From Thermoplasmatota archaeon (GTDB taxonomy: Archaea > Thermoplasmatota > Penumbrarchaeia > Penumbrarchaeales > Penumbrarchaeaceae): a DNA stretch of 64,000 nucleotides. Both the position numbers and the translations under genes were made by a program. Positions 30,825-55,865 of this stretch are shown one piece after another. Within the stretch, counting starts at the first letter, position 1; the number at the start of each line of letters is the position of its first letter. The DNA is taken from NCBI GenBank assembly GCA_965234725.1, contig CBDDUX010000063.1:15281-79280 (forward strand), in the 5' to 3' direction. Below the pieces are notes generated by a model. It worked only from the letters and a program-made list of their open reading frames with translations. It ran no database searches and was not told the DNA's origin.

Positions 30825-30906
30825 TAAATTCTAACAACAAGTTCAAATCCGGCTCCACCCAGAATACTATCATTAAATGAGATGTAGTTACATCGATAGT
30901 ATAATA

Positions 30907-30922
30907 GGCGCCGGGAGCCGGA
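30907..30922 (-). repeat. Direct copy of tRNA-Ser 3' end (16 bp)
   Basis: GGCGCCGGGAGCCGGA identical to 31020-31035. Confidence 0.9.
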
Positions 30923-31018
30923 CATTCGTAAAAAAGTAAACCCAAGTGATTCTGATCACTTTTTTACTTGCCAGTGATTAATTATTGATTACACGGCTCC
31001 CTTTGATTAGAAAATAAA

Positions 31019-31103
31019 TGGCGCCGGGAGCCGGATTTGAACCGACAAGGGTTGCCCCAGCGGTTTTCGAGACCGCCGCCGTACCAGGTTGAGCCATCCC
31101 GGC
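31019..31103 (-). tRNA. tRNA-Ser(CGA), CCA encoded
   Basis: GCCGGGA/TCCCGGC acceptor stem, anticodon arm GCGGT-CTCGAAA-ACCGC, long variable arm, GGTTCAAATCC T arm; 85 nt. Confidence 0.96.
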
Positions 31104-31522
31104 GTTTAGATTTGCGAATGCACCAGAAACGGCTCAACCTGGTTGACCCGAAGGGTCATTATACCAGGTCGGAGTGTCGAAGGCACTCCCATCCGTGAAC
31201 GGAATTCCCGAAGGGAATTGGGTTCTGAGCTATCCCGGCGTTTAGATTTGCGAATGCACCAGAAACGGCTCAACCTGGTTGACCCGAAGGGTCATTATAC
31301 CAGGTCGGAGTGTCGAAGGCACTCCCATCCGTGAACGGAATTCCCGAAGGGAATTGGGTTCTGAGCTATCCCGGCGTTTAGAATTGCGAATGCACCAGAA
31401 ATAGCTCAACCTGGTTGACCCGTAGGGTCATTTTACCAGGTCGGAGTGTCGAAGACACTCCCATCCGTGAACGGAATTCCCGAAGGGAATTGGGTTCTGA
31501 GCCATCCCGGCGTTTAGAATTG
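31090..31522. repeat. Tandem array of 136-bp hairpin-rich units, each containing the tRNA-Ser 5' 14 nt
   Basis: Units start at 31090, 31226, 31362 plus a 25-bp partial at 31498; 1 difference between units 1 and 2, 6 between units 2 and 3. Confidence 0.97.
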
Positions 31523-51892: not shown

Positions 51893-52597
51893 ATGAGAGA
51901 GGTGGAAAACGGTAACATTGAGGGGTTACAAACACCCCGGCTGTCCAGAGGTCAGCATCTCTTCAGGAGGATGATCCACCTGATCTCTGGATCAGTGGTT
52001 GTCTATTACCTGTTTCCGGACAGCGTCCTCTTTCTACCAAAGGAGATCGTACTGATCCTTGTCATCGGTCTGCTACCTCTTATCATAGAATATATCAGAT
52101 TGTCCAGAGGTGCTATCATTTTCGGTCAGAGGCCACATGAATATGAAGCTGTCGGGTCATATGCATGGTCCCTCTGGGCATCCCTATTCATAATCCTGAT
52201 ATTCCCTCAATCAATAGCGGTTCCTGTCATCTTGATATATTCCTTTGCTGACCCCGTCATGTCCGAACTCAGGGTATGGAAAAAATGGTCGGCTTTCAGC
52301 TTCGGTTTCCTGTTCATATGGATCATGTTCATGGTTTTCGGATTCAATATTGTCCTTGCTGCCTATGGGGCCCTCTTCATGATCATAGGAGAATCCACAG
52401 AACTGAAGGGTATATTGAGGGTCCGGCCTGAGCTGGCCAAATTGTATGAGGTCGAAAATGATATCAAGAAATGGATATTCAAGTTCAAGACGGATGATGA
52501 TGGAACGACCCAGGTTATCCCGGCCCTCTTTCTGGGACTTGCCTATCTATTCTCTCCCTCTTCATTTCCAGGACCGTGGTTGTTCCCACTTTTCTAG
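51893..52597 (+). CDS. Dolichol/phytol kinase-like membrane protein
   Basis: RRMIHL, RPHE...GSY, ADPxxSELR and DDD motifs, multiple TMs. Confidence 0.65.
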   Translation: MREVENGNIEGLQTPRLSRGQHLFRRMIHLISGSVVVYYLFPDSVLFLPKEIVLILVIGLLPLIIEYIRLSRGAIIFGQRPHEYEAVGSYAWSLWASLFIILIFPQSIAVPVILIYSFADPVMSELRVWKKWSAFSFGFLFIWIMFMVFGFNIVLAAYGALFMIIGESTELKGILRVRPELAKLYEVENDIKKWIFKFKTDDDGTTQVIPALFLGLAYLFSPSSFPGPWLFPLF

Positions 52598-52632
52598 TAT
52601 TAACATCAGGATATGGGGATCCCAACACAAAA

Positions 52633-52905
52633 CACCATTTCATGAAATGAGTTGAAATTTTTAAAAATGGTGCAGGCGCCGGGACATGTGAATAATCTAA
52701 GATTATTCACGTGTGTGGAAAATGTTCCATTTTCCAAACATTTGATTCCGCAAAATCAAAGATTTTGCTCAGGTTGAGCATTATCTATCGGCGCTTTAGT
52801 AAAACCAATGCTCAACCACCCAAGGGTTCAAATCCCTCACGTCGATTCCAGAGCACCATTTCATGAAATGAGTTGAAATTTTTAAAAATGGTGCAGGCGC
52901 CGGGA
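52633..52905. repeat. 52-bp perfect direct repeat (tRNA-Gly 3' 17 nt plus 35 nt trailer) enclosing a hairpin-rich insert
   Basis: 52633-52684 identical to 52854-52905; period 221 bp. Confidence 0.95.
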
Positions 52906-52964
52906 TTTGAACCCGGGTTAAAGGCTTGGAAGGCCCTTGTCATAGCCAACTAGACTACGCCTGC
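52889..52964 (-). tRNA. tRNA-Gly(TCC), CCA encoded
   Basis: GCAGGCG/CGCCTGC acceptor stem, loop CTTCCAA, GGGTTCAAATCCC T arm; 76 nt. Confidence 0.96.
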
Positions 52965-52995
52965 GGACTTTTTGAGGAGTAAGGTGATGTTGTTT

Positions 52996-53277
52996 TTAAT
53001 CCTTACTATCATTTTGTTTTTCCATTTTTCCCAACCACTCGACCCATCGGTCCTTCCTGATTCCAACAAGTTTTACTGATTCCAGTCTATCGATCTCATT
53101 CCCACCATCATCGTATGCGATCACAGTGGGAACAAAATTCAACCTGAGTTCAACCCATCCAGGGTCCTGGTGACCATCTAGCATAACCTCCTCCCCATCG
53201 GGATGATCACGGTAAAAGATCCTTCTGAAATGTTTACAGAATGGGCAACTTTCCATCTGATAAAGGACGAATTTCAT
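52996..53277 (-). CDS. Small thioredoxin/glutaredoxin-like protein
   Basis: CPFC plus cis-Pro motif FVPT. Confidence 0.8.
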   Translation of the reverse strand: MKFVLYQMESCPFCKHFRRIFYRDHPDGEEVMLDGHQDPGWVELRLNFVPTVIAYDDGGNEIDRLESVKLVGIRKDRWVEWLGKMEKQNDSKD

Positions 53278-53414: not shown

Positions 53415-55865
53415 ATGGTGTGCAGGATGAAAACAAACTTCATTGTTATCCTCATGGTGTCTTTGTTGGCCGGTTCAATCTCCATAATATCATTGAGTTC
53501 AGGCCAGGATAGTAACACCATAGATGGGCTTCAGCATATTTCCTTGGTCATCAATTCTGAGGTCCGTAATCATTATGCAGTTACAGAGTTCACTGCCATT
53601 CTAAGCAATCCGTCAGACAAGGACCAGGAAGATATATTCACATTGGAGGTCCCGGATGATGCGATGCTTTCGAACCTCACACTTGAGATCGAAGGTAAGC
53701 AATACTACGCATCCGTTGCCTCGACGGAAGAAGCAAAAGAGAGATACGATAATGCAAAGGAGAACAATGATACAGCTTCACAGGTCACATCCTCTGTACC
53801 GGGCGAATTCCAATTCTATATCAACATAGCTCCTCAGCAGGACCTTAACATCACGATAAGGTATGAACAGGTGATCTCAAAAGTGCTGGGAATGTACAAT
53901 TTCGATCTTGCATTGGATTCAATTGAAGGCTATTCATCCTATGAAGAAGTGGAAACCAGAGTGTCGATCACTGGAATGGGAGATCTCAAACCCTTCGATA
54001 TTTCCGGATCGACCATTGACCTGGAGCAGGCCTGGGATGGCAACAGGACCGTTATCTTGGACCATTCCACTTCAAATCCCAAAGAAAATGATAGAGTGGC
54101 AATCTCCTTCGGAGAGATCTCACCTCCGGCCGAAGGAAGACTTCAGACCTATATAGATGGTGATAGGGGTTACTTCATGCATGTCTTCTCTCCCCAACTT
54201 AAGGATGTGGGTTCCTACCTCCCAAAGGATATTATCTTCATTCTGGACAGATCAGGATCAATGGAGGGACAGAAGATCTCGCAGATGAAGGAAGCCTTCA
54301 ACGAGGTTGTGGACCAGCTTCATGAAGAGGACCGTTTCGATCTGATCACATTCTCTTCCGAGGTCGATACCTGGAAGGGGGAGATAGTGGATGCTACCGA
54401 TGGCAACAAGGAATCGGCCAAGTCGTTCATCAGTCTGATCTCTGCGGGTGGTTCCACCAATATCATCGATGCATTGACCGGTGGACTTAACCAGATGGAG
54501 CTGGACCAAAATAGGGTTCCCGTTATTGTATTCCTAACAGATGGACAACCTACGTCAGGATCCATTCAGAACCCGATGGATATCAGGGAAAGGATCCTGG
54601 ATGAGAACAAGGGAGAAGTGACCATCTATTCTCTTGGATTCGGTGATGACCTGGACTTCGAATTCATCAAAGCACTTTCCCTTGAGAACAACGGCTTTGC
54701 AATAGCCATTCCGGAAGGTGGGGATGCATCTTCTTTGATGACAGGTTTCTACGATACAATTTCAACACCACTTGTGAAGGACCTTCGTTTTGATTATTCC
54801 GGGATGGCATTCGATATCATCCCCACCAGACTTCCATCCCTGTATCAGGGATCAGAAGCTGTGATAGTCGGAAGGTTCGATCCTGATTCCGGATCAATAA
54901 CCTCCAATGTTTCGGGATTTACATCAACTGGAATGAGGTACTGGGAAAGATCCTTCGATGTTGTTGAAAATGAGAACAATGAGTTCATTGAAAGGCTCTG
55001 GGCCCATAGAACCATACTTCGGATCCTTGATGATATCACTGTTGAAGGAGAGACCGATGCTTTGGTGGAAAGAGTAACTTCTCTGGCCCTGAACTACTCC
55101 TTCGTCACACCCTATACCTCCTTCATTCTGGTTATTGAATCAAATGATGATGGGAGTGAACTCTCGGACGATGACAGTATAGGGGATGATCAGACTACCG
55201 ATGGTGACGAAACAAATGACGGGAAAGGTTCATTCCCCGGCATTTATGACCGTACCTCCGGAGATGATGATGACGGAGCAAGTGAATCCAATTCACCTTT
55301 AGATGGAGGAGGAAGCTGGGATGATCTGGATCCGTTGAAATCCCAGGATATCGATGATATGGACAATTTCTTGTTCATCTTAATTCCCATCGGAGTCGTC
55401 CTTCTGATAATCCTTATAATCGGTGCTGTAATTTATACACGGCTAAGAGATGATGAACTGCTCAAACAGGAGAACAGGAAGAAAATCTACGAGTACATAA
55501 TGAACAATCCAGGGGACCATTTCAGGGCCATCCAGAGAGCTGTAGACCTCGAGGTTGGAACCATTTCCCACCACATGAACATCCTGGAAAAGGAACAGCT
55601 GATAGTATCCGAACAGGACGGTAACAATAGGTGTTTCTGGGTGGCTGGTGTAAAAAGGGATACAGGTAAGATCAGGCTTTCGAGGATACAGGAGAACATA
55701 CTGAAGGAGATCCATGATGAGCCTGGAATTACCCAGGTCCAGATAGCTAAAAGGGTCGGAGTTTCAAGGAAGGTGGTCTTCTACCATGTGAAATTCCTGA
55801 CAAATGCGGAAATGGTCCTGGAGGAGAAGATCAAAAGGAGAGCACACTATTATCCCACTGATTGA
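53415..55865 (+). CDS. VIT + vWA extracellular domains, TM, cytoplasmic tandem winged-HTH
   Basis: Signal peptide; VIT-like FTLEVPDDAMLS; MIDAS LDRSGSM..GGSTN..LTDG; FVTPYTS; TM; NRKKIYEYIMNNPG.HF and PGITQVQIAKRVG. Confidence 0.85.
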   Translation: MVCRMKTNFIVILMVSLLAGSISIISLSSGQDSNTIDGLQHISLVINSEVRNHYAVTEFTAILSNPSDKDQEDIFTLEVPDDAMLSNLTLEIEGKQYYASVASTEEAKERYDNAKENNDTASQVTSSVPGEFQFYINIAPQQDLNITIRYEQVISKVLGMYNFDLALDSIEGYSSYEEVETRVSITGMGDLKPFDISGSTIDLEQAWDGNRTVILDHSTSNPKENDRVAISFGEISPPAEGRLQTYIDGDRGYFMHVFSPQLKDVGSYLPKDIIFILDRSGSMEGQKISQMKEAFNEVVDQLHEEDRFDLITFSSEVDTWKGEIVDATDGNKESAKSFISLISAGGSTNIIDALTGGLNQMELDQNRVPVIVFLTDGQPTSGSIQNPMDIRERILDENKGEVTIYSLGFGDDLDFEFIKALSLENNGFAIAIPEGGDASSLMTGFYDTISTPLVKDLRFDYSGMAFDIIPTRLPSLYQGSEAVIVGRFDPDSGSITSNVSGFTSTGMRYWERSFDVVENENNEFIERLWAHRTILRILDDITVEGETDALVERVTSLALNYSFVTPYTSFILVIESNDDGSELSDDDSIGDDQTTDGDETNDGKGSFPGIYDRTSGDDDDGASESNSPLDGGGSWDDLDPLKSQDIDDMDNFLFILIPIGVVLLIILIIGAVIYTRLRDDELLKQENRKKIYEYIMNNPGDHFRAIQRAVDLEVGTISHHMNILEKEQLIVSEQDGNNRCFWVAGVKRDTGKIRLSRIQENILKEIHDEPGITQVQIAKRVGVSRKVVFYHVKFLTNAEMVLEEKIKRRAHYYPTD

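Follow-up and report, generated by a model that had tools for sequence, protein, structure and literature searches.

The 3' end of a tRNA-Gly(UCC) gene occurs twice in the window, the whole 64,000-nucleotide (nt) stretch of Thermoplasmatota archaeon DNA analysed here, which raises the question of what the short hairpin-rich insert between the two copies is, and by what process such an insert comes to stand behind a tRNA gene. The insert is one complete gene-less unit, composed in order of hairpins H1 and H2, helices P1, P2 and P3, a tail and a trailer, of a family of hairpin cassettes anchored on tRNA genes and found in a lineage of uncultured Thermoplasmatota. The helices of this family are kept by compensatory changes while their sequence drifts. 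With moderate confidence we favour the explanation that the unit is a cargo-less cassette anchored by the tRNA tail and moved by recombination at this tail via an enzyme acting in trans, for which the hairpins would form the recognition module. No description of such units was found in the literature searched.

The tRNA-Gly(UCC) gene (tcc anticodon; 52889-52964, minus strand) is intact, encodes its CCA and is the anchor of the array; it matches the Rfam family RF00005 with 67.6 bits, and on its strand a run of five T directly follows the CCA. Its 3' end belongs to a direct repeat of 57 nt (52628-52684 and 52849-52905), the copies of which are 96% identical and spaced by 221 nt. The exact part comprises 52 nt (52633-52684), which bears out the 52-bp duplication described at this tRNA end in an earlier, sequence-only reading of the window; in the putative source sequencing run it forms a single 52-nt unitig of about double depth. 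In the repeat, about 40 nt of trailer are joined to the tRNA's final 17 nt, CCA included, in reverse complement (52668-52684). On the plus strand, the first copy contains a trailer hairpin with an 8-bp stem (52633-52640/52665-52672) and the reverse complement of the tRNA tail, while the second consists of the tail end, a trailer hairpin (52853-52861/52886-52894), the T-run that comes after CCA when the tRNA strand is read, and finally the genuine 3' end of tRNA-Gly.

The span between the repeats, 164-169 nt, folds into five hairpins, described here on the plus strand. H1 (52685-52713) has a 13-bp stem and a 3-nt loop, with compensatory changes in four other copies from three genomes, and H2 (52716-52736) has a 9-bp stem and a 3-nt loop, likewise with compensatory changes. 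They are followed by the core 'A' module (52737-52851, 115 nt), which carries half a T loop at its 5' end and then P1, P2, P3 and the tail. P1 (52750-52768) is a stem of 8 bp closed by a 3-nt loop, and P2 (52772-52817) is a stem of 11-12 bp, including the 11-bp pair 52772-52782/52807-52817, with a loop of about 24 nt that contains a conserved short motif. P3 (52823-52837) is an inverted, sense-oriented copy of the T arm of tRNA-Gly, in which 13 nt (52824-52836) are 100% complementary to 52902-52914. All five structures had been listed in the sequence-only reading and were recovered here. A further hairpin that it placed at 52766-52780 overlaps two helices backed by covariation and appears in no predicted fold.

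Folded as DNA, the 169-nt stretch reaches -34.8 kcal/mol compared with -13.4 +/- 2.6 in shuffles (z -8.2), a value equalled by none of 200 shuffled sequences. The initial impression that the insert is too small and too structured for an ordinary decayed island holds. The unit contains no open reading frame (ORF) of at least 60 amino acids (aa) except chance frames, and a scan of 52550-53000 against Rfam at E <= 10 returned the tRNA as the only significant match. Neither ARAGORN nor the Rfam tRNA model found a cloverleaf in 52685-52853, both reporting the true tRNA-Gly only, and a search by eye for an acceptor stem that would close the core into a cloverleaf found none. The loops of P1 were also considered as UUCG tetraloops, an idea that was dropped since an in-register reading of the printed sequences gives loops of 3 nt. 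In the gap that separates the first repeat copy from the stop codon (52597) of the ORF upstream, the plus strand carries at 52614-52632 the 3' half of a T-arm copy and a shortened tail. Read from the sequence, this stretch is uncertain and may be what is left of an older unit; it is similar to 52834-52853 in the tail region, and a homolog occupies the same position in a relative of the same genus (G004).

The core is not confined to this locus. A sequence search with 52628-52905 found the part 52740-52846 again, with 72-85% identity, on contigs C109 (twice), C75, C26 and C85 of the assembly to which the window belongs (G000; 114 contigs, 97.65% complete), and nhmmer added further copies on C2 and weaker places in the same genome. 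The consensus of seven copies obtained with RNAalifold comprises three helices with 24 pairs, 12 of them with compensatory change. The covariance model built from those seven copies (R1) matches the core in the window with 121.4 bits (E 3.3e-26) and detects nine places in G000 at E <= 0.01 and 16 at E <= 1. Among 41 Thermoplasmatota genomes, G000 included, 26 have matches at E <= 0.01, so that the description of the insert as single-copy in the sequence-only reading has to be abandoned. The matches fall in 21 of the 23 genomes of the same family and in both genomes of a sister family of the order; two further families have one weak match each, and all other families searched have none. Up to 16 matches are present per genome. 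A pattern search of genome contigs gave six loci, all of them in bins of uncultured Thermoplasmatales or Thermoplasmatota. A short pattern, also applied to viral contigs, gave 118 loci in metagenomes; none of the 84 pattern loci given to R1 matched, and the pattern hits were rejected as chance.

Conservation of the structure was assessed in 50 matches from 43 sources (49 distinct sequences). Pairs are formed in 93.9% of pair cells versus 70.7% in shuffles, none of 500 being as high, and the covariation score is 0.521 versus 0.140. All 24 modelled pairs are altered on both sides somewhere in the family, including 8/8 pairs of P1 (95.1% of cells paired) and 12/12 pairs of P2 (94.9%). When one strand is slid by 1-3 columns as a control, pairing falls to 34-60%. 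H1 and H2 covary across five copies, and they precede the core at the tRNA-Gly(UCC) and tRNA-Gly(GCC) genes of G004 and at tRNA-Gly loci of two other genomes (G023 and G016). The H module and the core are nevertheless separable, because a contig of sequencing run X2 has the core from 52740 onward behind different DNA.

The units are tied to the 3' ends of tRNA genes. The core copies on C109 and C26 adjoin tRNA-Gly(CCC) and tRNA-Glu(UUC), and a tRNA gene is present at 16 of 20 further loci around R1 matches. Two of the remaining four are contig ends. At the other two (L065 on C6 of G004 and L069 on C102 of G006), arrays of A units and of a second type, B, described below, are anchored on a gene with a 3' end that looks tRNA-like but without a match in ARAGORN or Rfam. 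Read with the tRNA on the minus strand, the arrays consist of tandem units of about 140-220 nt that open with the reverse complement of the local tRNA 3' end. This tail copy begins at the CCA or the discriminator, spans the acceptor and ends in the T stem or the T loop; it is followed by the core, the tail and a trailer, which usually has its own hairpin and an A-rich end corresponding to a T run on the tRNA strand. As a T-rich run follows each tail copy on the tRNA strand, the tRNA gene is whole whatever number of units is stacked behind it. Units confirmed by R1 occur behind at least 17 anticodon types, always in the orientation opposite to the tRNA. Tail copies of tRNA genes lacking an encoded CCA are 15 nt long and those of genes with CCA 17 nt, or 22 nt if the half T loop is counted; in the window the repeat reaches 57 nt. 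In G000, a direct copy of the 12-nt T-stem/acceptor core lies within 3 kb downstream of 15 of the 42 tRNA genes and upstream of none, the former count being a lower bound because 12 of the 42 have less than 700 nt of contig downstream. An inverted repeat of 9-13 nt links the two ends of the core: the half T loop at the 5' end, with the T stem belonging to the tail copy, is matched in inverted form by the 3' half of P3. In several subfamilies this repeat tracks the T stem of the local tRNA.

In many arrays A alternates with the second type of unit, B, which consists of a tail copy ending at the T stem (15 nt, or 17 nt with CCA), a long hairpin, a second hairpin and a third one that extends into the next tail copy. 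The short motif present in both the P2 loop and the tail of A is found on the opposite strand in B, which by eye looks like a related module in inverted orientation; R1 covers A only, and the statements on B rest on reading printed arrays by eye.

The window also contains a tRNA-Ser(cga) gene with repeats on both sides. On its 3' side (region 30838-31036), a tail copy (30908-30923) lies about 110 nt from the gene behind hairpin-rich filler, and beyond it an inverted T-arm-like stretch (30840-30862) and a trailer hairpin reproduce the layout of the tRNA-Gly locus with a different unit. On the 5' side (31104-31520) there are three tandem units with a spacing of 136 nt and 95-100% likeness. Each ends in a copy of the first 13-14 nt of the tRNA together with the stretch just upstream of the gene, and within each the D arm recurs in inverted form along with three hairpins that have short loops, which makes the array a mirror image of the 3' arrays. 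Copies of the 5' end were found 136-187 nt upstream at five of 40 tRNA genes of G000. In the sequence-only reading the tRNA-Gly insert was placed in the same class as this tRNA-Ser array; however, the latter is 5'-sided, copies the 5' end of its tRNA and has no R1 match at E <= 1, and is at most a mirror-image relative rather than a member of the same family. A 10-nt identity of the insert with tRNA-Ser (31085-31094), noted at the same time, is present in the sequence but is taken as incidental, because the arms of the helix concerned differ in other subfamilies.

The joints that delimit the gene-less units also bracket protein-coding cassettes. An intron-bearing tRNA(CAU) gene on C75 (Rfam, 54.1 bits) has at least 16 tail copies, distributed over six contigs (C53, C72, C75, C85, C90 and C106) and in several cases located at contig ends; the repeats of this array break the assembly (loci L074-L078, L010 and L011). 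The cargo between the tail copies includes two AbiEii/AbiEi toxin-antitoxin pairs, large surface proteins, MarR-type regulators and a five-gene set encoding DUF998, a hydrolase fragment, DUF4386, an FMN reductase and MarR, with genes in either orientation. What these cassettes have in common is limited to about 150-200 nt of boundary module surrounding the tail copies; past the tail copy the module opens with hairpins resembling P1 and P2. No recombinase domain is encoded by the genes on either side of the tRNA(CAU) anchor. Since the same joints bracket gene cassettes, the unit in the window looks like their minimal, cargo-less form.

The orthologous tRNA-Gly(UCC) locus was compared in relatives, where it is occupied by different small units, carries one additional small unit or stands empty. 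In G004, the flanks of which are 88-89% identical, the same H+A unit is present with a damaged P2 and a different tRNA-side trailer, along with one extra B unit and one extra tail copy. Another A subtype occurs in G003, where the locus is inverted relative to the neighbour gene, and yet another in G001, where it lies at the end of a contig. In G009 a B unit stands with another A subtype; G008, a genome without any R1 match, has four B units, and the site in G006 is empty. The differences in units between the relatives start and stop at the repeated tail. No large integrase-bearing island was seen at this locus in the relatives compared. Because the outer trailer of G004 matches both trailers in the window, the unusual length of the repeat (57 nt, where 15-22 nt is usual) is best read as the result of the inner, tRNA-side trailer having been made alike with the outer one.

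In G000, a single core subtype is shared by the loci of Gly-tcc, Gly-ccc and Glu-ttc and by the tRNA(CAU) array, each time with the local tail; in G004 the H+A composite occurs at Gly-tcc as well as at Gly-gcc, with the tail of the respective gene. Two arrays show very recent amplification, namely four near-identical 143-nt units behind tRNA-Arg(gcg) of G000, preceded by a B-type unit (C20:24862-25434, L089), and two identical 168-nt units at tRNA-Ser(gga) of G004. The tRNA-Arg(gcg) units are A-like by eye and have no R1 match. In the putative source run of the window, the depth of the insert unitig is 1514, that of the flanks 1917 and 1874, and that of the repeat unitig 3200; these contig depths would fit about one fifth of the cells being without the unit, which is a weak hint.

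In the mechanism that we propose, units would enter and leave via recombination within the repeated tRNA tail, at or in the T loop. The putative enzyme would be encoded in trans and read the T arm, the feature common to all targets, while the hairpin chain and the inverted T-arm copy may constitute the recognition and synapsis module of the unit. This module would more likely act as folded DNA than as RNA, in the manner of attC in integron cassettes. Three features lean to folded DNA: the 3-nt loops of H1, H2 and P1; the rarity of wobble pairs, with 16 G-T/T-G and 30 A-C/C-A cells versus 1041 Watson-Crick cells; and the presence, by eye, of related modules in both orientations. Tentatively, the arrays could go further and represent an archaeal, tRNA-anchored counterpart of the integron, serving to capture genes, with the tail corresponding to attI, the hairpins and the inverted T-arm copy to a folded-DNA attC, and an enzyme encoded in trans that reads the T arm and moves the cassettes in and out; the unit in the window would then be an empty cassette.

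Several observations weigh against a mobile cassette. No excision or circle joint was found in the contigs of the sequencing runs, the search covering contigs only. The H+A unit stands at the same place in G000 and G004, and the units at Gly-ccc are, by reading and with no computed figure, about as conserved as the coding flanks (88-89%); such same-place conservation fits stable inheritance or a host function as well as mobility. The match between a tail copy and the P3 of its own unit is only modestly above that of mismatched units (mean 9.0 versus 7.5, with 12 of 40 units exceeding the 90th percentile), and a perfect trailer stem of at least 7 bp reaching into the tail copy exists at only 11 of 61 copies (2.2% in shuffles). 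Two patterns found no copy on viral contigs (0 and 5 loci), a result that says nothing on absence. The pair counts derive from a model-fitted alignment, which favours structure, although the slid controls and a MAFFT-based count agree with them. Finally, all genomes compared are metagenome bins, and arrays often end contigs.

Domain searches of G000 and its relatives identified no enzyme for unit movement. G000 encodes seven tyrosine recombinases (PF00589), none of them beside tRNA-Gly or any A locus, and such enzymes are few in several unit-rich relatives (one in G007 with 13 R1 matches, a fragment only in G001 with eight, and none in G010 with four). Two 320-aa integrase genes of G000 located by tRNA-Thr genes are devoid of hairpin modules. 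Cas1 is present in only four of the 23 genomes of the same family. In G000 there is no Y1 transposase and no convincing match to the TnpB zinc ribbon, and the sole GIY-YIG match (PF01541) lies outside any array, on a different contig, in a frame of 615 aa. The two 320-aa tyrosine recombinases are paralogous (C102:6400-8345 and C44:19900-21807) and lie about 1 kb behind tRNA-Thr with one gene between, as parts of conventional elements. G000 also contains one reverse transcriptase and one serine recombinase, the latter beside tRNA-Cys. Candidates for the enzyme would be a XerA-like recombinase, the two 320-aa integrases and the casposase-like Cas1 on C59. Three further candidates were rejected: a homing-endonuclease cassette splitting tRNA genes, as the units carry no small GIY-YIG gene; a 388-aa integrase at a contig end of G004, which has no adjoining tRNA or tail copy; and the Cas1 of G012, in a region without a tRNA gene.

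The genes next to tRNA-Gly in the window encode no recombinase according to Pfam (no PF00589 match). They comprise 234-aa and 101-aa ORFs without a Pfam match, a VIT/VWA winged-helix protein, a PIN/NOB1-like protein and a KaiC/GvpD-like ATPase. In the 816-aa protein at 53415-55865, VIT and von Willebrand A domains are accompanied by two DNA-binding domains of the winged-helix type at the C terminus.

The alternative that survives best, though we consider it unlikely, is that the core is a gene for a structured non-coding RNA with a tRNA-like 3' domain (T arm and tail), riding in repeats and transcribed from the A/T-rich trailer upstream, and that the arrays are gene families kept by the host. 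The strong covariation of all helices speaks for such a gene, as do the canonical T-loop sequence of P3, found on the plus strand only, and the RNA fold of the 169-nt stretch (plus strand z -7.7, minus strand z -5.4). Occupation of the same place in G000 and G004, and conservation comparable by reading to that of neighbouring coding DNA, point in the same direction. Most units have an A/T-rich stretch some 27-40 nt ahead of P1, but a tRNA terminator read backwards explains it equally well. On the other hand, the only Rfam match is to the tRNA itself; loops of 3 nt close three of the five hairpins, and wobble pairs are very rare, with fewer G-T/T-G cells (16) than A-C/C-A cells (30) on the strand that would be the RNA. 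B modules are, by eye, in the opposite orientation, and the same boundaries bracket protein-coding cassettes. The sole RNA run compared covers just conserved neighbours, and the uncovered parts were not used as evidence.

An improbable alternative is that the units are non-autonomous relatives of casposons, inserted by a Cas1-type integrase that reads the T loop and cuts to either side of the tRNA tail, so that the tail becomes a target-site duplication; the tail copy would then fit the local tRNA in every case, and no unit would need to bring a tail along. There is a precedent in the casposase of Aciduliprofundum boonei (Thermoplasmatota), which targets the tRNA-Pro 3' end for insertion, depends on the T-loop motif TCAAATC, generates a 14-15-bp duplication and accepts single-stranded ends (PMC6614799); an integrase of this phylum can therefore read a T loop. 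The tail copies of 15 nt (no CCA) or 17 nt (CCA), which always match the local tRNA, agree with such a process. G000 has two Cas1 genes, one a Cas4-Cas1 fusion and the other a casposase-like frame of 408 aa near the 3' end of tRNA-Leu(cag). The region of the latter (C59:1-2460, L086) is probably one casposon end; the frame is truncated at the start of the contig, and the 315-aa ORF behind it, which has no Pfam match, ends about 200 nt from the tRNA 3' end. However, no A or B module is present there. Casposase-sized Cas1 is otherwise found only in G012, not near a tRNA gene, and as a partial copy in G001, and the four Cas1-bearing genomes of the family compare with 21 of 23 that have the core. 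Moreover, the repeat is set by tRNA landmarks (T stem to mature end) rather than by a fixed length, and the junction lies inside the T-loop motif, not 8 bp past it.

We assign a similarly low probability to the notion that no dedicated machinery exists and that unequal crossing-over, slippage and gene conversion at tail repeats or palindromes shaped the arrays after rare founding events. Identical tandem units and the one-unit difference between G000 and G004 need only homologous recombination between repeats of 17-22 nt, the 57-nt repeat looks like gene conversion of the trailer, and the enzyme searches identified no enzyme for the units. This notion leaves unexplained the presence of one core subtype at many tRNA genes, each time with its own tail, the compensatory upkeep of structure across the family or order, and the unrelated cargo genes held within the same modules. 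Lastly, it is very improbable that the insert is a deletion remnant of a large integrase island or provirus once present in tRNA-Gly, since, even if a partial tRNA copy by a tRNA gene is the classical scar of integrase insertion (PMC9897764) and G000 has conventional integrase genes by tRNA-Thr genes, the five covarying hairpins are intact, the same small unit is present in G004 with other small units or an empty site in five more relatives and an island in none, units of 140-220 nt recur behind at least 17 tRNA types, and the conventional integrase elements of G000 lack these modules.

About one third of the tRNA genes in this genome carry stacked units, as do most genomes of the family. If the units are mobile, as in the cassette explanation that we favour, they would mark a major way in which genes are gained and lost, without a linked integrase, in a large archaeal group that is uncultured, and the hairpin module would be a handle for finding the enzyme. 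If the modules are instead RNAs, they would represent a new and abundant tRNA-linked RNA family. In either case, the arrays break assemblies, as seen at the 12 of 42 tRNA genes with short downstream contigs, and the partial tRNA copies are open to annotation miscalls.

Among known systems, the tyrT distal repeats (RtT RNA) of E. coli are tandem units behind a tRNA gene that end in a copy of the tRNA 3' end. The units described here are likewise arranged in tandem behind tRNA genes, each with such a copy, but they are antisense hairpin chains, occur at many tRNA types, bracket genes and match no Rfam family except tRNA at E <= 10. Repetitive extragenic palindromic (REP) sequences and bacterial interspersed mosaic elements (BIME), palindromic elements derived from IS200/IS605, and transposable elements of the miniature inverted-repeat type (MITEs) are also small, gene-less, multi-copy and built of hairpins. 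The present units share these properties and end in an inverted repeat of 9-13 nt. They differ in being tied strictly to tRNA tails, with no short flank duplication except the tRNA tail, and the searches of G000 gave neither a Y1 transposase nor a convincing TnpB.

Family 2 casposons have in common with these units the host phylum, the tRNA 3' end as target, a T-loop motif and a short duplication of the tRNA end (PMC6614799). Unlike casposons, the units lack Cas1 and polymerase, Cas1 is rare in their hosts, and both the junction position and the rule for repeat length differ.

Integrase-less derivatives of elements that target tRNA genes exist in streptococci as cis-mobilizable elements. In Prochlorococcus, partial tRNA copies flank tycheposons, newcomers push older elements outward, and remnants as well as additional partial tRNAs are left along the island (bioRxiv 10.1101/2020.12.28.424599). 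As in tRNA-targeting elements generally, a direct repeat of the 3' part of the target tRNA, here from the T-loop region to the tRNA end, is found on both sides of the insert. The differences are that the present units measure only 140-220 nt, are gene-less and consist of covarying hairpins with an inverted T-arm copy, that no integrase family tracks them, and that about one third of the tRNA genes of one genome are occupied.

Integrons hold arrays of cassettes, some of them gene-less, at an anchored site, with palindromic attC sites of conserved structure and variable sequence, and with accessory or toxin-antitoxin cargo. The units are similarly arrayed at one anchor, some without genes, with joints that are imperfect palindromes kept in structure and with toxin-antitoxin cargo; the comparison with attC is one of general likeness only, in that structure is kept while sequence is free. 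In contrast to integrons, no integron integrase lies beside the anchor (there is no PF00589 match at tRNA-Gly or any A locus of G000), the anchor is a tRNA 3' end copied in each joint, many tRNA genes per genome serve as anchors, and the cargo is found in either orientation. The closest known kinds are tandem tRNA-integrating elements with partial tRNA repeats, and integron cassettes with a structure-conserved attC.

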